From Eledone cirrhosa (lineage: Eukaryota), in contig OZ024751.1 in the NCBI GenBank assembly GCA_964016885.1, positions 17,236,001 to 17,300,000 on the forward strand: a stretch of 64,000 nucleotides of DNA, written 5' to 3'. The stretch's first letter is position 1. Every line of letters begins with the position of its first letter. The notes below the pieces were generated by a model. That model searched no databases, was not told the DNA's origin, and worked only from the letters and a program-made list of their open reading frames with translations. Positions 8,595-52,671 of the stretch are shown here, in pieces. A program made the position numbers and the translations under genes.

Positions 8595-11500
8595 GATGAT
8601 GTCTTTATTGGCCACAAGGGCTGACATCAAGAAAACAATTCCAGACGGCACAGGACGGTACGATGTGGGTTTTGTGCGTGTAAATATTTTTATTATTTAT
8701 ATAAGAAAAGAAAAAAAGACATAGATACATATATATATATATAAACAATCAAAATGAAAATTGAAACAATACAAAATTCCCAATAGAGGGGAAACCTCCG
8801 AGGGTTACTCGTGGCGAAAACCACACAAAAGACCACGGCCACCCTGACCACCAGGGCAAGCGCCCTCTCTCAATTTTTCCATCTCTCAAACTACAATCGT
8901 ATATTCAGAGCGCTCCCGTTCACTCGGACCATTCTCGCTATTTTCACCCACCTTTCAACAAACTTGCTAGAAGGCAGCACTTACTTCTCCACCCTGATTT
9001 TCCTCTTCAAGTGAAACTTGAAAAAGTTAATTAGCGATTCGCCAAAGAGGAAAGTGTCTGTCTTTAACCCTTTCAACCTTGTCCACCACACAATCTCCTT
9101 CGCCAGGGCCACCAACAGATGAAAACCGCCTGCCCTTCCTCCCCGAGGGAAGACGGCGAGACCATCTGCACAATGGACTCAGTCGATAACCGGATCAGTC
9201 TAAAGGCACCACCTTCGTTATTGTTCACGTCCAGGACCACCAACTTCTCGTCCGCGTCCCGGAAGATCGACCTTACCTCGAGATCTAAGCCTTTCCTAAA
9301 CAGCACTGCCACCCCGCCACCCATTCCCGGCCGACTAACAGATGCAATGATCTGATAGTCGTCGAAAATGGGGGCTAGTGCGCGCGTGTTGAGAAATCCT
9401 GGTCTCGCTGATGGCAATTTCATCCATTTCTAAGACCTGAGGCCGTTAAGCAGGGGACCCTGCTTCCAGGACAATCCCAGGCCTCGAACATTTAAACTTC
9501 CTACTCTTAATACGGCTATGTTGGCAGGTTAAAAGAGAGAGAGGAAAGGTTCACTTACCTTCTGGGCTCTTGTGAAGGTCGGGTGGTTCGACCTCCATAG
9601 TTGGTTCTTTTGGTAACCCTTTTGAAAGTCTTGAAGTGGGTTTTACGTTCGGGGTTCCCACGTCCCGAGGAAAGCTGTCTCCTATCTCTCTGTATAAATC
9701 GAGCGACATTCGCACCAGAAACAAATCTTCCGGCACGCGAAATGTGCTCAATTAAAAAATTTCCTCCTCTTTTTGTATATTTTCACTTCGTGCCATCAGT
9801 TCCTTGTTGTCTCTTCTGACGAGCACGAAGTTTTGCATGTTTTGTTGGTGTGATTTTATTTGTTTACGTGGCTGTGGTGGTTGTGGTTTTGGTGGTGTTG
9901 TTTCGGTTGTGTCTGTGTTTGTTGTGATTGCGGTGTCTGTGGTTTCAGATGTTTGTGTGTGTATTTGTTCTTGCGTCTGTTTAGGTTGTTTGCGTTTGGG
10001 GGATTCTGGTGATGGTGATGGTGGTGTTGATATTGGTGTTATTGGAGAGATGTTTGCGTGGGTCGTGTCTGCATTTTTTATTGTGGGTTATTTTGTGCTT
10101 TGTTGAGTTTTTTTTTCCTTTTTGTGTTTTCTTTTTTGTATTTTGGGGGATTTTGGTTTTCCCTCATCTTCACTACTGGTAGATGAGGGGTCTGTGTTGT
10201 AAGTGTGTCTGTTTATGTTTTTATTGGTGTGTGTATTTTTTGTTTGGGGGTGGGGGGGAATTTGACAACTTTCCTCGTTTTCCACCTGGGTGGTCAATGT
10301 TGGTGGTGGTCTTTCTATTGGTGTTGTTGGTGGTTTTGCCGGTGCTGGTGTTGGTTGTGGTCCTCGCCCAGGCGTCGGCAGCAGTGGAGCCTTTCGACGC
10401 CTTGTATCTTTCAGTAGTTGAGGGCAGAAGGCTCGCAAATGGGTTTCTTCCCCACAAACAAAACAATGCGCCTTTGCCCTCGGTCATAATATGAATGACC
10501 GTCCCATCCTGAAGGCGGATGTGGTCCGGGATTGTCTTCACATTCTCGGGCCTGATCTGGATAAGGATCTCCAGGTCAACCCCTGACCAGTCCTCTCTGG
10601 CCATTCTTCTCACTTCTATCGGGACGGTATCCGTCCCCTCCACATTCACAGATCCCAGAAGCCACCATGTGTCAACTCCTGGTGGGATTCTGGGAATGCG
10701 GAGACGGGCCGTTCTTTTTCCAATGTGGGAGGGGTACATTATGACCTTACCGGTTTTGCAAGGAGTCATAGCGAGGCCTTTTGACTTGAACAGCACCGAA
10801 ATGGTGCCTTACTGTCTGCCCCTTGCTGTGTATTCGGTGTCTTCTCTGATGCACCTCAGCGCGACTTAGACATCTGCTTGTGGAATTAAAGCTGCCCTTT
10901 TGGTTTGTGCTGAGATGCATCTATAATGCACCGTTCTGCGCTCCACTGCCTCAATAGCTTCTACTGGGACAGTTAACATGGACCAGGTTTGCTCTTGCTT
11001 GATGAGCTTCCAGGCCTGGGCCAACTTTTCATCTTTGTTTCAGAGGTCCATGTTGGAGCATGGCCTCTTTTTTGCTGCTGCCGTGGCTAAAGTGGTATTC
11101 TTGTTGTCGTTGGGGGTGTTGTTTTTGTTGTCGTTGTTCTTGTTGGTGTTGTTGTTATCACTGTCGCTGTTATCATTGTTGTCTTTGGTGCCGCGTTGTT
11201 CTTGGTGCAGTTGGTATTGTTGCTGTTGGTGTGGTCGCTATTTGTTTTAACGTTAGTGTTGTTGATATTGTTGTTGCATTTGTCATTATTTCTGTTATCT
11301 GAATTTTCGTTGTCGCTGTTACTGTCATTTTTTCAAAATTAGAGTTTTCAGTGTTGTTATCATTGCTGTCTTTGTTCGCATTGTTTTTAGTAGTGTTTGT
11401 TGTATCAATTTCTGTTAATTTCGCCGTAGCGCTTCTCTCAACTTCTACGTCGTTGTCACACGACAGCTGCCATATCGCTGGGGGGCGTGGCTCAGGCAAA

Positions 11501-16825: not shown

Positions 16826-19487
16826 TTTATTATAGTTTAGATATAGATATTCAAACACAATAGATGCACCATTTACGTACGTCTCTCTCTCTCTTCCTTG
16901 TCTTAGAAGCCTCAGAGAAGTTCTTAAACTGTAATATCAGGACTAATTAAGTACAGTATTTCAGCGGTAACATTTCAATATCTTTGTTGTAATTATTTCA
17001 TTGTAATGTTCTGTCTGCATTGTTCTTACATTCTTAACACATACTAAACTAAAATGTCATATATTCAGTTTAGAGTAGCTATTTGAATAAAAAGAAAAAC
17101 ACTGATTCGTTCTTATTAATTCAATTTGTCGACCTACCATTGAAATGTGGATATTTTTGCACACACAAAGAACAAAATAAATTGTGCTGTTTTGTTTCGG
17201 TTTTGTTAAATTTCTATTTTGGATCCCAAAGTAAAAAGTACTCATTTGTTTCTGTGGTTTTATATAAATTATGGAAAACAAAGCGAAAAAAAAGCGACAA
17301 TTTTTGTTTTACGAAAAGTTGGAAATTCTGAATTGTGTTATATTATATATAAGTTCTGGAGTTTTGACTATATATCTGTCTGGCCCGTTTTTCATCATTC
17401 CCAAGCATCTATCATTTTAGGGACAGTCGTCGTACTCATCATACACATTCGGGTTATTTCTACTTCTAATTCATCATTATTTACTGCGGAATTGCTGGCC
17501 TTGTGCCAAAAATAGAAACACTTATCATTATTATGTTTATTATTATTTATTATTCTCTCTCTTGTAACATCATGACGTGCTTTAACTCCACAATAATATC
17601 GATGTTTTCCTTCTCTTTCAGTTTATTTACTGAAGTGTTTTGACTGAGTGAAAAGGATATTTAACAGAACAGGTAAGGAAATGTAATGTTTTCCGCATAT
17701 AAAATCACACACACAAACAAACACGCATACACACATACATACATGTATGTATAACCATATATATATATATACACATTCAAATTTGTGTTTTTTATTCCAC
17801 AATGCTTCAAACAAACTACAACACGTTGTTATACATGTATATATATATAGGATGGCTGCAAATTCTCTCTGCTAGGAGTATTGCAATCGCCTGTCAGATT
17901 ATAGAGTTTGGTGCACGTTTAGGCTACGCCCAGCCACACGAACCTGTAACATATTCTGAACAAGCAATGCTTGTGCTTTGACGGTTTTTTTAAGTGTGGC
18001 AAGGTCTTGCACTCGACAATTCCCACTATCTGAGCATCGAAAACACAACTCGAAAAGGAGAACTGATCAACATCATCGGATGCTTCCGAAGCCGCAGGTT
18101 TTTTTTTTCTGTGTTTCCTTCTCTTAGACAGGTATTGTGACAACAAGTGGGGGCTTTTCACTCCCAATATATATACACCCATACACACACTCAGGAATCT
18201 CAAAGTGACATACAGTGTGTCTTAGATTCCATCTTTCTCCAGGTTGAAGCAAGCGATTCTTTCATACAGAGAGAGAGTGAGGGGGGGGAGGGAGAGTGAT
18301 GTAAAAACGGGATACAGAGTAAGAGTCTACTTCGATGGTGAGCATGTGTTAAATGTATTTATCTGTGATTATATTTGAATTCTGAACGCAGAATTTCGGA
18401 ACAAATACTGCAAAAAGGTTTAATGTTCTAACATTCTTATGTTATAAGTTCTCATATATTATCAAGTAATTGGCCAATTTATTTAGTAAGAAAGTTCAAA
18501 ATTTAATATCCTATTCAAATGTCAACAGGATACATTGGTATATTGGTATTCGGTTTATAAGGCGCAACCAAATTTAATAGAAATAATGACGAATTGTATT
18601 GTTATGGTTGTGTTACATATGAATCAAACTGTCATTAATGAGACCACTGTGATAACGATATGAATAACTACATGTAATTACCTGTAGGTGGCTTCTGTAT
18701 GAATTATTTATGTAAATTAACGTCGGTGTTCGCATATTTAGTGTCATGTGCAGAGGGATTAATTGCAATTTCACATGGAGTGAGGTGAAACCCATTAAAT
18801 GAATAATTCATTATTGTCAAAAGAGAGAGTTGAGACATCGGTAGAATTGAAATTAATTAGAAATAAAATTTTGTGGTGAAGGAATATATTAGTTTGTAGT
18901 GTAGGTAAACCTCCGGTCTTGTCTCAGTTATTAGGCAGTTGGTAGCAAAGGTGTACAGCCGATCGTTTTTATGTCAAAAATCTTGCAGCTACAGCATTTG
19001 TTTCCGTAAAATATTGCCATAAAATATTTGAAAATTCACGAAGATTATTAGGTTTAAATTTCCAAACTCAGTCTCATCTTATATTATGCTAATAATTTAC
19101 ACGTTGCATAAACACCGTATTTGATATGAAACAAAACCAAATACAGCATTATTCTTTAGTAAAAGAACAACAAACATGAAACAACTATGTTCTGTTTATA
19201 TTTCACGTTTGTGTGTGAATGCATTAATTTAAAAGTTACTCGAAATATCTGTTATATGCAATTCTGCCTCGATCAATTTGAAAAGCAAAGTTTGGCTATT
19301 ATTCTAGAGAGTTTTGGCTGCGACTAGTTTAAAATTATATTCAATCTCTCAAGAAAAATGCTGATATCACATACCCTAGTGTGAATTTACTTACGGCTGT
19401 TTCGACAGGTAGATCCTAATGGATCTACTACCCTAGGTATCGAGTACTCTGGTGCGTTATGATCCACCTGGTATCGTACCACACCCT

Positions 19488-19556
<69 letters not shown>

Positions 19557-25099: not shown

Positions 25100-25104
<5 letters not shown>

Positions 25105-25320
25105 TCTCTCTGGGAAGATAAAGGTAGACTATAACGCACCAGAGTAGTCAACACTTAGAGTAGTAGGATGGGTAATATGAAAATAGTCAGGACGCCGACG
25201 GCTGAGCTCCAGCCGATTCGACAGCTAGATCTGAACCAAGTCAATTATGCCAAGGCTTAGGTCGGATCTAGCAGTCGAAACGACCGGAGCTCAGCCATCG
25301 GGGTCCAAACTCTTTTCCCA
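25100..25320. mobile_element. Family C (TA)n-embedded fold-back element containing a hammerhead 3' half
   Basis: Imperfect palindrome 25190-25306 with GAAA...TC-GGGGTCC. It shares ATAACGCACCAGAGTA...AGTAG with 51032-51224 and 19392-19492. Confidence 0.65.
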
Positions 25321-26043: not shown

Positions 26044-26158
26044 ATATATTATTAAGTGTAAGGAATTCTTTTACAATGGAATTGCAATATATATACAGAT
26101 GTGTTGGTATCTGTGTTTCATCATATATATTAGTTTATATTGATATATATATGTATAT

Positions 26159-26343
26159 ATTGATACAAGGAAGATTAATCGTTTTAAAAGGTATCTATAT
26201 TTAAAGTTCTAGTTAAACTTTAATTAGTTACCTACCTAGCTGTGTGTGCTTACACACTTTTACAAATTATTCCCTGTGATTGTTTCATATGTTTATTTTA
26301 GATATATATATATATGTATGTCAATCAATTTCTCGTTGATATA

Positions 26344-26408
<65 letters not shown>

Positions 26409-26811
26409 GTGGTTACACAACAGTTAGTTCACCATACCGAGAACAATTGTTTCACCTTAGTGGATCCTCAACTCGTAATGGACATGTTTATACGGAACAG
26501 GTATGGTGAACTAACTGTTGTGTAACCACTTCTACCTAACTCGTCCCATGGACTGGGTGCTCTACCACTACGGATATTACCTTCCAGTGTCCTACCACTA
26601 TATATATATATATATATATATAAATATATATAAACGAGAAATTGATTGACATACATATATATATATATCTAAAATAAACATATGAAACAATCACAGGGAA
26701 TAATTTGTAAAAGTGTGTAAACGCACACAGCTAGGTAGGTAACTAATTAAAGTTTAACTAGAACTTTAAATATAGATAGCTTTTAAAATGATTAATCTTC
26801 CTTGTATCAAT
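26159..26811. repeat. Nested inverted repeats: outer ~190-bp arms (26159-26348 and 26622-26811), inner 35-bp arms (26404-26438 and 26500-26534)
   Basis: The arms read directly as reverse complements and are separated by (TA)n tracts. Confidence 0.92.
26438..26475 (-). ncRNA. Minimal type I hammerhead (C3->U) in the loop of the inner inverted repeat
   Basis: Minus strand: CGAG-TTGAGGA-TCC ACTAA GGT-GAAA-CAATTG-TT-CTCG, with palindromic stem III. Confidence 0.6.
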
Positions 26812-27126
26812 CGATCGATAAATCACCGGTGACTACGACCTGTATACACGACGCTGGTCTGTGTTTTTGCTGTTGTTGTTTATAGATGGTCGTCAACTAA
26901 ATGTATACCCCATTCCCCTCAGAGCACCTTGTGTTCCTTCAACTGTCTACTGGGTTTTGGTTACACACGGTTCTTCATTCCTTTCGTCTTTTTTCAGTGA
27001 TAGCTTTTTCTAACCATTCAAGGAACTCATATGTATGCTGGGCGCACATACATTAGGATGTGTGTTTTCCTGCCAGCGGCATGTCAAATATATCGTGGGC
27101 AAATATATCGGCATGTCATATATATA

Positions 27127-35636: not shown

Positions 35637-35754
35637 CTATATATATATATATATATTACTATATATATATATATATATATTACTATATTATATATATATA
35701 TATATATCAAATTATATATATATATATATATAATGTCTATATATATATATATAT

Positions 35755-35783
<29 letters not shown>

Positions 35784-35788
<5 letters not shown>

Positions 35789-36492
35789 ATAATAATAAAT
35801 TTGAAGACTAAAATCCAAAGAGGGCTCAATAAGGATAAATATATATCAAATATATAAGAACCGTAGAGCAAATATTTATTAAAATAACAGATTAAAGTTT
35901 AAGCAAAGAATCGCTGCTTTCACCCTTAACGGGATCTTCTGAAACTAACAAAGTCAATCTGTAAATGCAGAAGTGGATATTTCAAAAAACGTTGCAACCG
36001 GAGGAAGACAGGAAGACGATACTTTGGTTCGTGGAAACGTTCCCTGGCAAAGAACGGGAAAAAACGAATATAATACGTCATTAATAGGAGCGGTGAAAAA
36101 CAATTACGCGCAAAGACAGAACCACGTTTATGGTATGAAAGAAGTCGTAGACTAATGTTCTATTAGGTGGTTCATAGAGACGTTCTCTGGCAAATGAACG
36201 AAAAAAACGAAGATAATACGTCATATGTGGAGCGTGGAGAACAATTGCACTCAAAGACAAAACCACGTAAATTGTATAGCTGAAGTCGGAGACTAACATT
36301 CTAGCAAAGAATCGCTGCTTTCACCCTTAACGGGATCTTCAGAAGATCCTGTTAAGGGTGAACGCAGCGATTCTTTGTTTAAACTTTAACCTGTTATTTT
36401 AATAAATAATTGCTCTACGGTTCTTATATATCTGATATATATTTATCTTTATCGAGCCCTTTTTGGATTTTAGTCTTCAAAGTTATTATTAT

Positions 36493-36497
<5 letters not shown>
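35784..36497. mobile_element. Family B composite with ~160-bp inverted terminal copies, a partial third copy and an internal ~143-bp tandem duplication (36037-36303)
   Basis: 35784-35940 is the reverse complement of 36340-36497. 36303-36339 repeats the hammerhead segment. (TA)n on both sides. Confidence 0.85.
35896..35946 (-). ncRNA. Hammerhead-like fold with variant core CAGAAGA
   Basis: Minus strand: AGTTT-CAGAAGA-TCCC GTTAA GGGT-GAAA-GCA GCGATTCTT TGC-TT-AAACT. All three stems pair. Confidence 0.6.
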
Positions 36498-36558
<61 letters not shown>

Positions 36559-36600
36559 ATGAAACATAAGTCAATTGCATGAACTCATAATCCTTTATTT

Positions 36601-36658
36601 ACTGCTATATATATATTTCGATGATACCCATTGAATGGCTATGACCTCGTCAGGCAGT
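36601..36658 (-). ncRNA. Type I hammerhead ribozyme (PLE-type) with intact core
   Basis: Minus strand: ACTGC-CTGACGA-GGTCATAGCCAT TCA ATGGGTATCATC-GAAA-TATATATA-TA-GCAGT. AATAAA follows 1 nt downstream and TATATAA lies ~10 nt upstream. Confidence 0.8.
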
Positions 36659-36860
36659 TAGTCAGACCTTATATATACCAGCTCAGTGTTTATAGCGTTG
36701 ATGGTATCAGAGCCTTGGGACATATGAGCTTGTTAGGAATAATTTAATGTTGTCAGCAGGAATAGTCTTGATTCTCATTGTTCAGTTTGTAGATGGTAGT
36801 AGGGTTGGTATTTGACCTCAAACGATATACATATCTATATATATGTATATATATATATAT

Positions 36861-38225: not shown

Positions 38226-40165
38226 GACATGCGCAATCCCGACCAGGTCCATACACGACAACCTCCACCTAATGCGATTCATCATTGAGAAGATAGGGTG
38301 TAAACCCGGCTTCGGTGGGGCCCTGCTCAACTTGGATCTGTTTAAGGCTTTCCATAGGGTTGACCATCGTTACATGGATGCGGTGCTTGAAGCGGCAGGC
38401 TTCGGACCCGTGTTCAGGGGCTGGATTGCTGCAATGCACAACAGCAACATCTGCTCAAGGGTCAAGGTGAACGGCTTCCTCTCGGAGCCGTTCCATATCA
38501 CGCGATCCATCCGACAGGGATACCCTCTCTCCTCCCTTCTGTACGTACTGACTCTCGAGCCACTACTGCGGAAGTTGGAGCTATTGCAGGACATCCCATT
38601 AGAACCGGGACTGCGGAAAGTGGCGTCGGCCTATGCCGACAACTTGACAGTAATGGTGTCGAGCACCTCGCAAATCGAGGAGTTCGGCACCTTACTGAAG
38701 GCATACAAAAGGTTCACAGGAGCGATGCTGAACCGAGACAAGTCCGTCGGTTTGCAACTAGGATCGTGGAGAGGCAACTGGAACGAGGTGACGGCCAAGG
38801 TGTTTGCGCTCACCCAGAAGTGGGCCGAGTGCAAACTATCCTTGAAAGGTAGAGCAGAGGAGGCGTACACTTTTATAGCGTCCGTCATCTACTACCGCTT
38901 GACTGACGTGCCTTTTCCAGCCAAAACGCTCACCAAAATGGAGCGCGCGCTCTTTCAATTCCTTTGGAAGAAACGGGCTCCTTTGGTGAGAAGATCTATC
39001 TGCTGCAAAAACCCTTCCAACGGAGGCCTGGGGATGCCTTTGCTCACGAGGCACAAACGCGCGCTCAGGCTGCAGCATCACTACATATTCCTCACCAGAC
39101 AACCGGTGTGGGCCCCGTTCGTGAGGCGAGCCTTCCCACGAGTCGTTTCGCTGACCGAGTTGCAGTCCTGGGTCAAGCAAAGACCGAGGAAAATGGGCGA
39201 CTGGCACATCGAATCTGCTCAGACGCTCACAGCCCTCTGGCAGGCGGACCCGGCAATCAGTAGAGACTCCACTTTGTCATTCTATAGAGGGTTGATCCGC
39301 AGCAAGTGCGACCACGCGCTCGGAGAAACTCCGGGCGTAGAGGAAGACGAACTGGCAAGTCTGTTAGGTAGGACCTTCTGCCCAGGAACGCTGGACAACT
39401 TTCAAAAGTCCCTGGACTCGCAGTGCTACGAGGAGCTCAACCAGTTCGAGACAACTCTACAGACATGGCCGCCCTAGCAGGGAACCTTCGAAAAAGATCT
39501 GTCCGTGATGCGTGCGAGACGAAGAACCCGTCGCGCACGCATTCGTACACTGCCCGGGCTTTACCGACCTGTGGGGCTATGTTGAACGACTATTGTCGCG
39601 GGTGGGACCAATCCGGTTGACCACCGAGTGCATGGTCATGATCAAACCGCCACCCCTCTTCAAAAACGAAAGGAGAGGCGGTTTTCCTTTGTGTGATAGC
39701 TATGGCGAAAGAGGTACTATGGTGGACGAGGTTAAAAGGGCTGAGCTCAGACACTTTTCTCTCAGGCCAGCAACTGATTCTTTTTTACAAATACCACTTT
39801 GGAAGAAGAATCAGGATGGAGAGAGAGGTGCTGTACCCCAGCAAGTTTTATGAAAGGTGGGTGAAAGTGGCGAGAATGGCCCGAGTGAATGGGCCTTCTC
39901 TCTATATCAGCCTGTAGGTTGAGGAAAAAGAGGAAGAGAGGAAAGGGGTACTCACTCTTTGTACTCCTGGAGATGAGGGTTGCACATTTTTTTCTGGAGG
40001 GGGGGGTATATTTTACCCATATGTAATGTCTACCTTTATTTGGGAAAATTCGATTAATCTTTAAATTGCATTTGTGATTGTATTTTACACATTTTTATTG
40101 TATGTAAACTTCCCCCTTTGTATTTGTCCCCTTCTTTTGTTCCCCTGTGGCTAATAAAGAAACAT
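38226..40165 (+). mobile_element. 5'-truncated Tx1/L1-clade LINE (RT, zinc knuckle, 3' UTR), decayed
   Basis: ORF 38272-39477 has LDLFKAFHRVDH, SIRQGYPLSSLLY, AYADNL (YADD mutated) and LSLKGRA. Frameshifted E...HAFVHC follows. It ends AATAAAG plus a TCTA-rich tract. Confidence 0.9.
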
Positions 40166-40319
40166 ATCTTTCTATCATGCACCCATCTATCTATATATCT
40201 ATCATTCATCTATCTATCTCTCAGTCATCTATCTTTCTATCATCCATTTATCTATCTATCTATTCATATAACTATCTATATATCTACCTATTCATATCCT
40301 TAATTATCTATTTATCTAT

Positions 40320-42535
40320 GGGCATGGACGCCGAGATCACAGCCACTGAGGTACGGGACGCTCTGTGCCGCTGCGGGAAACGGAAATCACTCGGTCTAGA
40401 TGGTCTACTCTATGAGTTTTACATAGGCATGCCGGATTTGTTCTCTGGCGTCCTCGAAGCCGTCTGCTGAAACTGGTAACAGAACGGGAGAATTCCCAGT
40501 TCTGCAGGCAGGGGCGTAGTAACGCTGATCAGGAAAGACGAGAACAAGGGGGCCGAAATAAGCAACTTTAGGCCCATAACTCTGCTCAACATAGAATTAA
40601 AGATTTTGGCCTATGTGTTGGCAACGAGGCTGACGCTTGTCGTCGAGAACACGGTAGGGAAAGCGCAGACGTGTGCAATCCCGACCAGGTACATACAAGA
40701 CAAGCTCCACCTCATGCGATGCATCATCGAGAGGATAGGGTGTAAACCCGGCTTCGGTGGGGCTCTGATCAATTTAGATCAGTCTAAGGTGATCGATAGG
40801 ATCGACCATCGATATTTGGAAGCGGTTCTCAAGGCGGCCGGTTTCGGAGCCGTCTTCAAAGGCTGGATCGCTGCAATGCACACCAACATCTTCTCGGCGG
40901 TCAAGGTGAACAGCTACCTATCGGAGCCGTTCGGAATCACGCGTTCCATCCGACATGGATGCCTACTCTCCTCCATTCTGTACGTTGGGAGTCTAGACCC
41001 ACTAGCTCCTGCATGGCATCCCGTTGGAACCGGGACTCCTGAAAGCGGCGGCGGCCTATGCCGACGACGTGACAGTAATGGTGTCGGAAACCTCGGAAAT
41101 CGGGGCGAACGGTAACTAACTGCAGGGATACGAAAGGCACACAGGAGCAAAACTGGATCCGGACAAGTCTGTCGGTTTGCAACTCGGAACATGGAGAGGG
41201 AAACCGATGCCGTCCGACAGCGTCGTCGGACGCGGGACGGAAGGACCGGTGAAATTGCTCGGGGTCTGGTTCGGTCCGGACCTCCAGGTGGAGAAAAACT
41301 GGAACAAGGTCACGGCCAAGCTATATGCGGTCACCCAGAAGTGGGCAGAGTGCAAACTATCCTTGAAAGGTCGAGCGGTGTTGGCGAAAGCTTTCGTAGC
41401 GTCCGTCATCTACTACCGCTTGACCGTCGTGCCTTGTCCTCGTGAACACCTCACCAAGATAGAGCGCTTGCTCTTCCAGTTCCTTTGGAAGAAGCAGGCT
41501 CCACTGGTGAGGAGATCCGTCTGCTGTCGTCAGCACCCTTCCAACGGAGGGCTGGGAATGCCGTGGCTGATGTGGCGCAAACATGCGCTGAGGCTACGGC
41601 ATCTCCAGGTATTCCTCAACGACCCCCAACCGGTGTGAGCACCGTTTGTGAGACAAACGTTCCGGCAACTTGTCTCGCTGACGGAGCTGCAGTCCTGGGT
41701 CAAGCGCAGACCGAAGAAGATAGGCGTCTCACACATTGAATGCGCTCATGCCCACAGTCCTCTGTCAATAGGGCACGGCAATCAGTGGAGACTCCACTTC
41801 GACATTCTATAGAGGGTTAGTACGTCACAAGGGCGACGACGTGCTCGGAGAGACTCTGGGCGTCGAAGACGACGAGCTCACATGTCTGTTTGGTAGGACT
41901 TTGCGCCCGGGACCTATGGACAACTTCCAGAGGTCCCTTCCTTGGCAGTGCTACCGAGAAACTCTACCAGTTCGAGACAAGATTTACAGGCACGGACGCC
42001 CCGGCAGGGATCCTTCCAAGAGGACGTGTCCAAGATGCGAGCAGGAAATTGAAACCGTCTTGCACGCAATTATACACTGCCCGGGCGTAAATGACCTGTG
42101 AAACTACGCAGATAACTGCGTAAGGGCTAAATCCAGTTGACTGCCGCCAAACCCCCATCCTATTTCAAAAGCGAAAGGGAGGCGATTTTCCTATGTATAG
42201 TGGCTATGGTGAAAGAGGTTATATGGTGGATGAGATTGAGAGGACTGAGGACAGATGCCTTTCTCTCCGGACAACTCCTCATTCCCTTCTTTAGGTACCA
42301 TTTTAGAAGTAGAATCAGAGTGGAGATTGAGGCACTGCATCCCAGTAAATTTACTGAAATTTACTGTTCTATCAATGGGGTATTAAACAAACCATTTGTG
42401 GCGCCTCCGCTATTCGGGATTTCGATTGTTAAATTTGTTTGCTTCAATTTTTTACACGACTGTATGTAAAATCCTCGGCATGTGTCCTTGCATTATCCCC
42501 TTTTCTTGTGCGCCCTTGTGGCAAATAAAGAGATC
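40320..42535 (+). mobile_element. Second Tx1/L1-clade LINE copy (RT domain 0 to 3' end) with several frameshifts
   Basis: KSLGLDGLLYEFY, NFRPITLLN, LDQSKVIDRIDH, TATGCCGACGAC (YADD), VKLLGVWFG and CPRCEQEIETVLHAIIHC. TCTA tracts on both sides. Confidence 0.9.
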
Positions 42536-45079: not shown

Positions 45080-45104
45080 TCTAATAAACAACATAAGGCA
45101 ATTA

Positions 45105-45165
45105 TTTCATTTACCAGTGGTTTCTTAAAAGCAAACAAATGTTGCTTTCAATCATCAGAATGAAA
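45105..45165 (-). ncRNA. Type I hammerhead ribozyme, left arm of the palindrome
   Basis: Minus strand: TTTCATT-CTGATGA-TTGAAAGC AACATTTGTTT GCTTTTAA-GAAA-CC ACT GG-TA-AATGAAA. Confidence 0.82.
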
Positions 45166-45258
45166 AAATCCTGGTGTATTTATTGGCATTGGATTTTAAA
45201 AACCATTGGATTTTAAAAGCTTTTTTAAAATCCAATGCCAATAAATACACCAGGATTT

Positions 45259-45319
45259 TTTCATTCTGATGATTGAAAGCAAAATTTGTTCGCTTTTAAG
45301 AAACCACTGGTAAATGAAA
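45259..45319 (+). ncRNA. Type I hammerhead ribozyme, right arm of the palindrome
   Basis: TTTCATT(45259-65), CTGATGA(45266-72), 8-bp stem II TTGAAAGC/GCTTTTAA, GAAA(45300-03), CCACTGG, TA, AATGAAA. GUA cleavage site. Confidence 0.82.
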
Positions 45320-47182
45320 TAATTGCATTATGTTGTTTATTACATAACTATTAAGCTCTGTTACCTACATAGAGCACTCTTTTTTCCTGGACCTTTCCGA
45401 CGGAATTACTTCATTCACACACACACATATATATATATGTTATGTGTATGTGTGTGTGTTGGAGTTACATCGGTTTCACAGGTTCTAGTTTCTCGAACAA
45501 CGGAACTTCCTGCTCGTGAAATTAACGTGCACGTGACTAAGCATTCCACAGTCACGTGTACTTTTAACGTCCATATTTGGGAGAATCAGCAGGACACAAT
45601 GGACGACAAGCCTGTCCCATTTGAATTACAGGCATCATAGAAATACATTTCTGGATTTCAGATTCAGCTGCATTTGAGGTTAAATTGAAAGAAAAATAGC
45701 AAAATTTCCTTTATTTTCTAATTTGAAACAGGTTTAAAAAAAATACGATGTATTTGATAAAATCTTCCTAACAGATGAAGTTTAATCAGAAAAATAGATT
45801 TGAATAAAAAAAAAAATTTCTATAGTGCTCCAGCATTTCTATCATGGTAGTGCTCTATCTATATGTTACTAACAGTCTGTTATTGCTTGCTTGCTAGTAT
45901 GTAATGTAATACACCCAAAAGGGCGCATAATGGGAAAATACTTTGAAATGAAGTTGCCCCTGAAATGGGAATACAAATGAAATAAAACAAGTTATGCGTA
46001 AATCGGACACCGGGTCCCGAGTTATGGGGTTTTTCCGGGTACCTTCATAAACAAAGAGAGAGAAAGATAGAGAGGAAGAGATGGTGGTTGTGAGAGAGTA
46101 GATTGAAAGAGAGACTAGAGAGAGAATGGAAGGGAGAGAGAGCTGGTGCTGATGTTGTGTATATATATATATATGTGAGTGTGTGTATATATATATATAT
46201 ATATGTTTGTGTGAGTGTATGACCAGTGCATATAGATCACAGACACCCACATATATACACACACACACATATATATATGTATAAACACACACACATATAT
46301 ATACATACACATACGTATATATATATGGGCCTTCCAGTTCCTTTTCACATTAAATACACGGCTGTGTATATTTTAATTATTTAAAAATTATTTTTAAGTG
46401 AACATGATTTTTAAAAGATATTTTGAAATGAACGTGACTCGATGGATCACAGGTGGTCTAGTATGTGATAAAACCTTCCTAACAGATGATGTTTACTCAG
46501 GAAAATAAATTTGAATAAAAAAAAAAAAGGATTATATAGAATTTAGAGGCTTGTTCCAGAATTTCTATCATTGTACTGCTCTAGAGAATGTGAAATTGTA
46601 ACAATGACAGAAACTATTGTCAACGTAGTACATGGTAATATTTGTTAATAGATGTTTTTGTTTAAGTGATCATTAGAATTTAAAGAAGGCTATATTTATT
46701 TTATTCTGTTCTTTTTTTTATAATTAGATTTACAATTTGATAATTTAATAATAATGTGCAACCTATATTTATTTATTTATTTATTATTATTTATTTTCGT
46801 TGTTCTATATGAAATCTTTTCATTGAAGATTTTTCAAATAAGGAATAGGGAAATAATCAATTGACTTAAAATGTAAAAATGTTCCTTCTGAAATAAATGC
46901 ATTCAAGTAGAAGAACATAATTATCTAACCTATGCAATATTTAATTGGCAAAATATTCGCATCAACATGTTGTAGACTTTTATCATATTACCCATGTCAG
47001 CTTAATCTATTGCCAATTCTAAACACTATATAGTAACAATAATTGAATTAGCTTCATAGGTGTTTTAGTAGCAAAACTGATGTTATTGCATTCCACTGGC
47101 ATAGAATTTGGTTACAAGTTTTCATAATAATACATTTGACCATGCGGCAAACACATCGTGTTAGATTTGTCTGGGAAATAAT

Positions 47183-50967: not shown

Positions 50968-51031
<64 letters not shown>

Positions 51032-51034
<3 letters not shown>

Positions 51035-51224
51035 GAAGGAAATGTGGTAAGGAACCAGATGGACCATAACGCACCAAAGTACTCAATACTTAGGGTAGTA
51101 GAGTGGGTAATAGGAACGAGTAGGCCCCGACGGCTGAGCTCAAGCCGTTTCGACGGCTAATTCTGGACGGATTTAGCCGTCGAAACGGCTTGAGCTCAGC
51201 CGTCGGGGTCCTACTCGTTCCTAT
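51032..51224. mobile_element. Family C element with a 115-bp GC-rich palindrome (51110-51224) built from a hammerhead 3' half
   Basis: GACGGCTAA-loop-TTAGCCGTC-GAAA-CGGCT TGAGCTC AGCCG-TC-GGGG, mirrored on the left. (TA)n on both sides. Confidence 0.75.
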
Positions 51225-51341
51225 ATATATATATATATATATATATCAATCTATCTATTTCCCTCTTTCTCTATCTCTCTCTCTCTTTCTCTCTTTCTCT
51301 CCCTTTTTCTTTCTCTCCCTTTCTCTTTCTCTCTTTCTCCC

Positions 51342-52304: not shown

Positions 52305-52446
52305 CCTTATTCCTAATTAAACTATTTTTTTCTGGAAATATATATATATATATATATAATGTAGGAGGTGAGTTTTATTGTAGCACAATAAAGCAATGAA
52401 AATGTCGGATAAGTAGCACTCTACAGTCTGTAGGACTGGAGTATAA

Positions 52447-52590
52447 ATAATATAAGATCAAAAGCTGGTTAAAAGAGTTCCAAGTATTTTATTATGCGCA
52501 TTTCAAAAACAAATATCATCATGGGATGATATTTGTTTTTGAAATGCTCATAATAAAATACTTGGAACTCTTTTAACCATCTTTTGATCT

Positions 52591-52598
<8 letters not shown>
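52447..52598. repeat. 152-bp palindrome adjoining (TA)n, containing GAAA-TGCGCA-TA
   Basis: ATAATATAAGATCAAAAG... and ...CTTTTGATCTTATATTAT, with a 4-nt loop ATGG. Confidence 0.9.

Positions 52599-52671
<73 letters not shown>

Follow-up and report, generated by a model that had tools for sequence, protein, structure and literature searches.

The palindrome at positions 51110-51224 of the window (the whole 64-kb stretch of DNA analyzed here) is part of a short inverted insertion derived from a Penelope-like element (PLE). We identified the parent of this family and the layout of its hammerhead ribozyme, and observed that the copies have two fixed outer ends, variable centers near position +1 of the parent, a long-tailed arm paired with a short-tailed one, and an extra G. 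Such insertions probably arose when one capped RNA was primed at two fixed sites and the cDNAs were end-joined at the RNA 5′ end.

Structure of the inverted insertion

Self-comparison of the window revealed an inverted repeat at 51110-51224 (93% identity, 116 columns). The element exceeds this palindrome: it comprises 195 bp (51030-51224), is bounded by (TA)n runs and is asymmetric, with an 80-nt tail on one side. In the following list, signed positions refer to +1 of the parent, its predicted transcription start.

50975-51029: left (TA)n target flank, from sequence
51030-51224: whole short inverted Penelope-like insertion, long-tailed and short-tailed arms head to head (40 best genome matches near full length, 95-100%; ends fixed in 30 loci)
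51030-51109, minus strand: 80-nt tail, parent +62 to +141, final TAT common to the (TA)n target; predicted outer start of reverse transcription (continuous with the parent, which continues into the ORF)
51110-51168, minus strand: long-tailed arm, parent +2 to +61, with a hammerhead 3′ half at 51125-51159 (sequence compared with the parent)
51169: single filler base at the head-to-head junction (sequence read against the parent)
51170-51224, plus strand: short-tailed arm, parent +7 to +61, final TAT common to the target; predicted inner start of reverse transcription (sequence compared with the parent)
51174-51208, plus strand: hammerhead 3′ half, with stem II 3′ strand, GAAA, stem III, GUC site and stem I 3′ strand (from sequence; the parent folds as a three-way junction)
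51225-51246: right (TA)n target flank, from sequence
25100-25320: older copy of this family; a filler of approximately 17-20 nt separates its arms, which both reach to about +1 (sequence comparison)
19424-19490, plus strand: tail remnant of the same family beside (TA)n (87% over 60 nt)
52360-52600: second-family copy whose arms are joined in the stem-II register, a minority form (its parent has a canonical CUGAUGA hammerhead and a body with DKT and RWI motifs)

The right half of the palindrome contains TAGCCGTC at 51174-51181 and GAAA at 51182-51185 (the stem II 3′ strand and GAAA), followed by CGGCT-TGAGCTC-AGCCG (51186-51202), TC (51203-51204) and GGGG (51205-51208). Stem III of this copy therefore has 5 bp and the loop TGAGCTC, and is followed by the GUC site and GGGG. 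The earlier note had described a perfect hammerhead 3′ half with a GUC site, and this is what we found at 51174-51208 and, as a mirror on the minus strand, at 51125-51159. Its observation that an inverted copy replaces the core half also holds, as 51110-51224 has neither the core nor the 5′ strand of stem I or stem II. What looks like stem II in this copy is no more than the 3′ strand in reverse complement; in the parent, the true 5′ strand (G[A/C]TCGGCTA) is located 28-36 nt upstream of +1, and it is missing here. A half-hammerhead without a core is therefore predicted to be unable to cleave in cis. An Rfam scan of the 64-kb window (E≤1) returned no hammerhead, just repeat-driven miRNA matches, and the window contains no parent of this family; the hammerhead reading rests on the sequence and fold of the parent.

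Two further palindromes, noted earlier as a relative and an unrelated case, are both present. The first (25190-25306) matches the 51110 copy at 82% over 110 nt, and the second (52447-52598; 94% over 157 nt) has no similarity to it.

The parent element

We traced the parent from widely spaced pairs of single arms, through kilobase inverted copies, to intact tandem units. The intact element forms 3,531-bp tandem units with a 717-aa ORF (ATG at +232), and in 25 of 30 loci (read from alignment output) the hammerhead and tail lie immediately 5′ of the ORF. All of the sequence of the palindrome maps on this parent, in agreement with the retroelement origin proposed earlier for a MITE-looking palindrome.

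The 717-aa protein contains the motifs RWR, DKT, YRDD, a CNCX5C linker (CNCPDRSIC), VIY..YIG, CNLC and CKH, which are conserved in 45 aligned relatives: YRDD is present in all 45 and DKT in 43, with RWK in 32 and RWR in 10. A CCHH was not seen by eye in the EN core of the parent protein. A single ORF thus joins reverse transcriptase (YRDD) and GIY-YIG endonuclease (VIY..YIG) signatures, as in EN+ PLEs, and the layout (3,531-bp tandems, 23 long inverted copies, two end classes due to an optional tail) is also that of such elements. Alignment of the ORF with a local RVT_1-positive PLE ORF gave a collinear, though weak, match (505 columns, probability 9.9%, E 0.003). Pfam and PDB sequence searches with the protein gave no match, and a single-sequence AlphaFold model was uninformative (pLDDT 32).

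The RWK-type, DKT, CxCX5C, CxxC and CxH motifs are described as diagnostic for the Hydra clade (PMC8557442). The parent carries an RWK-type motif, DKT (for DKG), and CxCX5C, CxxC and CxH flanking E and N, and it occupies (TA)n targets: a TA run follows 342 of the 346 arms that do not continue into the ORF. Judged by its sequence, the parent is a Penelope-like retrotransposon with Hydra-clade motifs, the clade being placed by motifs and not by phylogeny.

At C1:437.20-437.21 Mb (L114-L117, L251) there are at least four near-identical 3,531-bp tandem units with open ORFs, and many other 784-codon open frames occur across the genome, which suggests that the family was recently active. In a DNA-type sequencing run, the summed depth over +1 to +141 was far above that of the ORF; this value is not a copy number, possibly reflects the source data and was not used as evidence.

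The parent hammerhead and a putative promoter in loop II

Upstream of the arm, the parent contains, in this order, ACCCC, UUGA(G/U)AA, the stem II 5′ strand and a loop of approximately 38 nt, followed by the half found in the window. Non-inverted parents with CCCC-CTGANGA had been predicted; CCCC of stem I does directly precede the core, whereas the core itself is not CUGANGA, being UUGA(G/U)AA in 32 of 41 contexts. In these 41 contexts the 3-8 pair is U3-A8 in 32, C3.A8 in eight and G3 in one, the canonical C3-G8 being absent. A search with the CTGANGA pattern gave 14 matches and was abandoned as a route to the parent: ten were head-to-head copies of the 51110 family with chance or filler letters, and the remaining four were junctions with other sequences.

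The minimum-energy fold of the parent is a three-way junction of type I topology, which is no more stable than those of shuffled sequences (z −0.04). With three stems, a core including the 3-8 pair, GAAA and an NUH site, the sequence is that of a type I hammerhead, for which cleavage is predicted. Compared with the canonical hammerhead of the Hydra clade, it is a variant, with the type I topology but a U3-A8 core and a long loop II. U3-A8 hammerheads are known from Schistosoma PLEs, according to the portion consulted (PMC4209133).

Relative to +1, the TATA element is at −29, the core at −43 and GAAA at +19. In loop II, TATTTAAA occupies −29 and the letters at +1 (TCAGT/TTAGT) are initiator-like; from promoter consensus, we take the two to be a TATA box and an initiator. 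We infer that +1 (AGTCC), 29 nt after the TATA box and inside hammerhead loop II, is the transcription start; the start may be spread over −3 to +1. The single RNA run available consisted of contigs, none of which covered the hammerhead. A TATA box and initiator in the pLTR are known from rotifer Penelopes (PMC3846280, in the part consulted).

Centers and 5′ ends of the copies

An exact-flank search of the genome (3.0 Gb) identified 17,858 palindromes, whereas the reversed control pattern gave one, so that the palindrome is not a product of chance; exact single arms numbered 28,422. For inspection we retrieved 50 listed places out of the 17,858. A positional sample provided 60 palindromes for mapping of the centers and 59 for arm pairing (one had insufficient flank), and further sets of 127 and 138 copies were enriched by targeted searches, in which a few places were possibly counted twice.

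The outer ends of the copies are fixed, and the centers vary (15-53 nt, most of them differing), the commonest length being 30 nt (13 of 60 positional copies). The further-reaching arm begins between −6 and +7 in all 60. Center mapping had been suggested earlier as a means of revealing clusters at ribozyme loops; the centers do cluster in loop II, just 5′ of the stem II 3′ strand, but at the predicted +1 and not in the register of a stem-II fold-back. There was no pile-up of arm 5′ ends at +42, and the hammerhead cleavage site was rejected as a breakpoint, as the arms extend 40 nt beyond it.

Across the genome, +1 is reached by 19,953 arms, but only 4,862 agree with the parent as far as −7, a number somewhat depressed by sequence variants. 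Many arms extend 1-3 nt beyond +1 into parent-like letters. At −1 of the arms reaching +1, G (3,378) predominates over A (661), whereas the parent has T in 59, C in 12 and G in none of 71 cases. By-eye reading of 30 arms indicated that the G is unexplainable by the opposite arm in 18 and ambiguous in 12. A non-parental G at −1 is as expected from a copied cap, and full-length L1 insertions are reported to carry an extra cap G in the sections consulted (PMC11702581).

Some centers have additional features. L163, L165 and L063 contain 15-17 A added at the cDNA 3′ end just after the +1 region, as by slippage or terminal addition. In L137, L138, L141, L145, L153 and L186, short templated fillers were copied from the copy's own arm, and fillers of the L137 type resemble template jumps or polymerase-theta-type joining.

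Outer ends and pairing of the arms

The TA run begins at +56 to +60 in 158 of 361 arms and at +136 to +140 in 149. Outer ends very rarely coincide with the internal TAT sites at +83 and +103; the TAT at +59 is the first after +1. A long-tailed arm is paired with a short-tailed one in 59 of 59 positional copies, in 135 of 138 retrieved palindromes and in 22 of 23 kilobase inverted copies.

Neither arm reaches further in the 5′ direction as a rule. In the 59 positional copies the long-tailed arm does so in 27, the short-tailed in 22, and the two are equal in ten; among the kilobase copies the numbers are 11 (short-tailed), ten (long-tailed) and one unclear. The lead of the short-tailed arm amounts to 3 nt or more in 14 of the 59; among the long copies it extends to 2.4 kb (L258, L266). 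In 15 copies a complete arm with GAAA faces a long arm ending before GAAA, and in L173, L196 and L200 the G+1 is on the short arm and the long arm ends at +71, +54 and +57, near the inner start. The extra G was found on the short arm in 11 and on the long arm in 14 of 25 long-short pairs.

After removal of 14 gapped pairs out of 141, the arm haplotypes were equal in 103 of the remaining 127 (shuffled mean 23, maximum 38), and most of the differences were at single sites.

Proposed mechanism and alternatives

In the mechanism that we consider probable, the element protein would nick both strands of a (TA)n run. Transcription from +1 in loop II would yield an RNA lacking the core and hence uncut at +41. 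Reverse transcription would start twice, near +59 and near +139, the two starts using opposite target strands and each being aided by a TAT match. Both cDNAs would be extended to the cap, where a C would often be added, and the second cDNA would displace the first. PLE reverse transcriptases are not known to have RNase H. The two cDNA 3′ ends would then be trimmed and joined via microhomology or filler. A start in the 5′ pLTR would give the abundant palindromes of approximately 190 bp, and one in a downstream pLTR the kilobase inverted copies.

A relative provides a biochemical parallel. The consulted part of the report on the anole Poseidon protein (PMC11167929) describes in vitro cutting and extension of both strands, two internal starts that match the tail ends, uncleaved RNA as template and a predicted dimer. 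In that system the use of start sites is the same on both strands, which alone would not yield strict long-short pairing and counts against our proposal.

One RNA, or two RNAs from one source locus, would have the same sequence outcome, and the copies cannot separate these cases. L032, L034, L037 and L038 are head-to-head junctions of an arm of the 51110 family with other repeat families, which suggests two different RNAs, or a later rearrangement, at one target; together with 1-3 copies whose arms have mixed haplotypes, they show that two templates are involved at times. Later deletions across the center could mimic the symmetry of the arms.

A more general formulation, for which we see an even chance of being correct, is an obligate two-headed PLE insertion: one protein dimer would use two hard-wired sites of the same capped RNA to prime both strands of the target, which would explain the tail, the inverted pLTR and the MITE-like palindromes. 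It includes a promoter in the hammerhead loop, so that pLTR transcripts would escape self-cleavage and read-through ones would be cleavable.

The main rival, which we regard as unlikely, is a fold-back at the tip: a tail-primed cDNA would reach the capped 5′ end, snap back and copy itself to +61, and later deletions in the center would create variety. The equal haplotypes of the arms in 103 of 127 copies are consistent with it, long-short pairing would be its natural consequence, +59 offers the first TAT after +1, and centers such as that of L171, with G on both arms and a short filler, resemble tip hairpins. A fold-back copy cannot outgrow its template, so the long-tailed arm would have to reach further 5′; the short-tailed arm does so in 22 of the 49 positional copies with unequal arms and, among the long copies, by as much as 2.4 kb (L258, L266), and it carries the extra G in 11 of 25 pairs. 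Moreover, kilobase copies bypass many TAT sites (72 per parent unit) and end at the same site. Zero-loop centers (the only cases used, since the loop-size count tolerates mismatches) also argue against it; they were found in seven of 59 positional copies and, by hand count, as ATAT palindromes in 20 of the first 50 start-centered copies listed for the 52447 family. This fold-back stays the main rival to two primings because post-insertion deletions could blur arm polarity.

Amplification of the palindrome itself, as a fixed non-autonomous unit resembling a MITE or a SINE, is improbable. The ends fixed in TA, the commonest center of 30 nt and the 40 near-identical full-length matches (the best 40 of the genome) are in its favor, and some finished palindromes may have been re-mobilized. 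Against it, the ends are asymmetric, the centers mostly differ, the arms are matched to each other in every subfamily, and all sequence maps on a parent encoding reverse transcriptase, with no terminal inverted repeat beyond parent sequence. The earlier note had regarded fixed symmetrical ends as the mark of a true DNA MITE; the ends are fixed, but the long-short asymmetry (135 of 138) and the non-uniform centers (15-53 nt) led us to reject a DNA transposon. The insertions lie inside (TA)n runs, where a target-site duplication is illegible. A non-LTR retrozyme, defined in the text consulted as short tandem units each with a complete hammerhead (bioRxiv 10.64898/2026.07.22.740005), was likewise rejected, as the short copies have an inverted arrangement and no core.

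Self-priming on an antisense template, put forward for palindromic PLE junctions because rotifer Penelopes show intron retention and palindromes joined head to head (PMC3846280, consulted in part), is a little less plausible still: here it is the sense 5′ end that is marked by the centers and the extra G, and the outer ends fit the sense-template starts seen in vitro for a relative in the consulted part of PMC11167929.

The last alternative is the one originally proposed for 51110-51224, self-priming of the cDNA on stem II. The center just 5′ of the stem II 3′ strand is compatible with it, but the copy lacks the stem II 5′ strand, and a fold-back of this kind would keep the loop II of approximately 38 nt, a product found once in 3.0 Gb, rearranged and non-palindromic (with a search pattern that misses some subfamily variants), which makes this origin very unlikely. 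Of the original interpretation, the retroelement origin and the half-hammerhead thus stand, and the core letters and, for this site, the mechanism do not.

Centers of the second family

The 52447 family provides a separate view of the idea that ribozyme helices set the breakpoints. It does not apply generally: 2,077 centers are at the predicted start, approximately 75 nt upstream of the intact CUGAUGA core, versus 93 in the stem II region. Among the first 50 start-centered copies listed, 18 were counted by hand as carrying a non-parental G, the parent having C or T at −1 in four of four cases. As for the stem II region, 22 of the first 50 copies listed are in the exact stem-II register, the form of the window copy among them, and the helix therefore sets a minor breakpoint in this family.

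These 22 copies agree with self-priming on stem II, but their polarity does not. We examined 21 of them together with the window copy, and in 13 of 20 long-short copies it is the short-tailed arm that extends through loop II, which excludes a single self-primed cDNA as the source of such copies. The class fits two cDNAs annealing via stem II, and it also fits a later deletion between direct repeats created by stem II in a longer palindrome.

Comparison with known elements

Head-to-head structures are already known for PLEs. In the parts of the literature consulted, the formation of tandem and inverted PLE insertions is called undefined (PMC8557442), and the published guess for inverted ones is self-priming (PMC3846280).

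The following comparisons likewise draw on portions of the cited papers. The Hydra clade (Craig et al. 2021, PMC8557442), which includes an octopus member, shares with our parent the single ORF with a C-terminal GIY-YIG, the RWK-type, DKT, CxCX5C, CxxC and CxH motifs, the (TA)n targets and a 3′ hammerhead. The units listed there are mostly below 3 kb, whereas the parent here has 3.5 kb, and the hammerheads have CUGANGA and loops of approximately 3-10 nt, in contrast to the U3-A8 pair and the loop II of approximately 38 nt found here.

Poseidon PAc of Anolis (Frangieh et al. 2024, PMC11167929) resembles our family in the two internal starts that bound an optional tail, the cutting and extension of both strands, the AT-rich targets, the uncleaved RNA template and the pLTR hammerhead just before the ORF. 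Its tail has 30-40 nt, whereas the one described here has 80 nt and ends that share TAT with the target, and the two starts are not tied there to head-to-head insertions. The Adineta vaga Penelope (Arkhipova et al. 2013, PMC3846280) is similar in its pLTR TATA box and initiator, inverted pLTR, junction palindrome and one-sided tail; few copies were available there and were read as antisense self-priming, whereas the thousands of junctions here indicate a sense 5′ end with a cap G.

The Cercyon PLE hammerheads of Schistosoma (Cervera and De la Pena 2014, PMC4209133) are like the present one in their U3-A8 pair, type I topology and long helix II, and also in having a palindromic loop 3 and motif pairs on opposite strands. 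The differences are the stem III of 5 bp and the predicted promoter in loop II, which would place the start of the transcript inside its own ribozyme. Twin priming of L1 (PMC11702581) also involves a second priming of one RNA on the other target strand, microhomology joins and a cap G, but there each cDNA covers its own, adjacent part and the second site is used opportunistically, whereas here the sites are fixed and the copies usually overlap up to the 5′ end.

The short natural junctions, approximately 18,000 from one family and thousands from a second, allowed three measurable rules to be defined: the center lies at the predicted capped 5′ end, one end is long and the other short, and there is no arm preference. 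Neither these rules nor the promoter-in-loop layout was found in the open-access literature searched. The rules connect the start sites seen in vitro, as given in the consulted part of PMC11167929, to inverted structures, and they make sharp predictions for that assay. They also carry a warning: in such genomes, a palindrome with TA flanks and a MITE annotation can consist of retroelement ends.

Other repeats in the window

The families at 35733-36548 and 45100-45350 have kept the core on both arms, which also speaks against ribozyme helices as a general breakpoint. The former is a third PLE-type family, present as a partial tandem plus an inverted copy, with a hammerhead-like motif (core CAGAAGA); its junctions lie approximately 5 nt before the core, and one relative (L180) has an extra G. 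The palindrome at 45100-45350 contains CTGATGA-TT-GAAA, a hammerhead core without stem II, and continues on one side into an element body. On the minus strand, 36560-36690 contains an intact type I hammerhead whose stem III is TATATA, a repeat that the elements insert into. A TA-flanked long-short palindrome of another family (26407-26600) is nested in a 225-nt inverted repeat (26147-26823). Broken LINE reverse transcriptase and ORF1 remnants, which from their motifs we take to be L1/Tx1-like, are present at 38227-41638 and 10088-10808.
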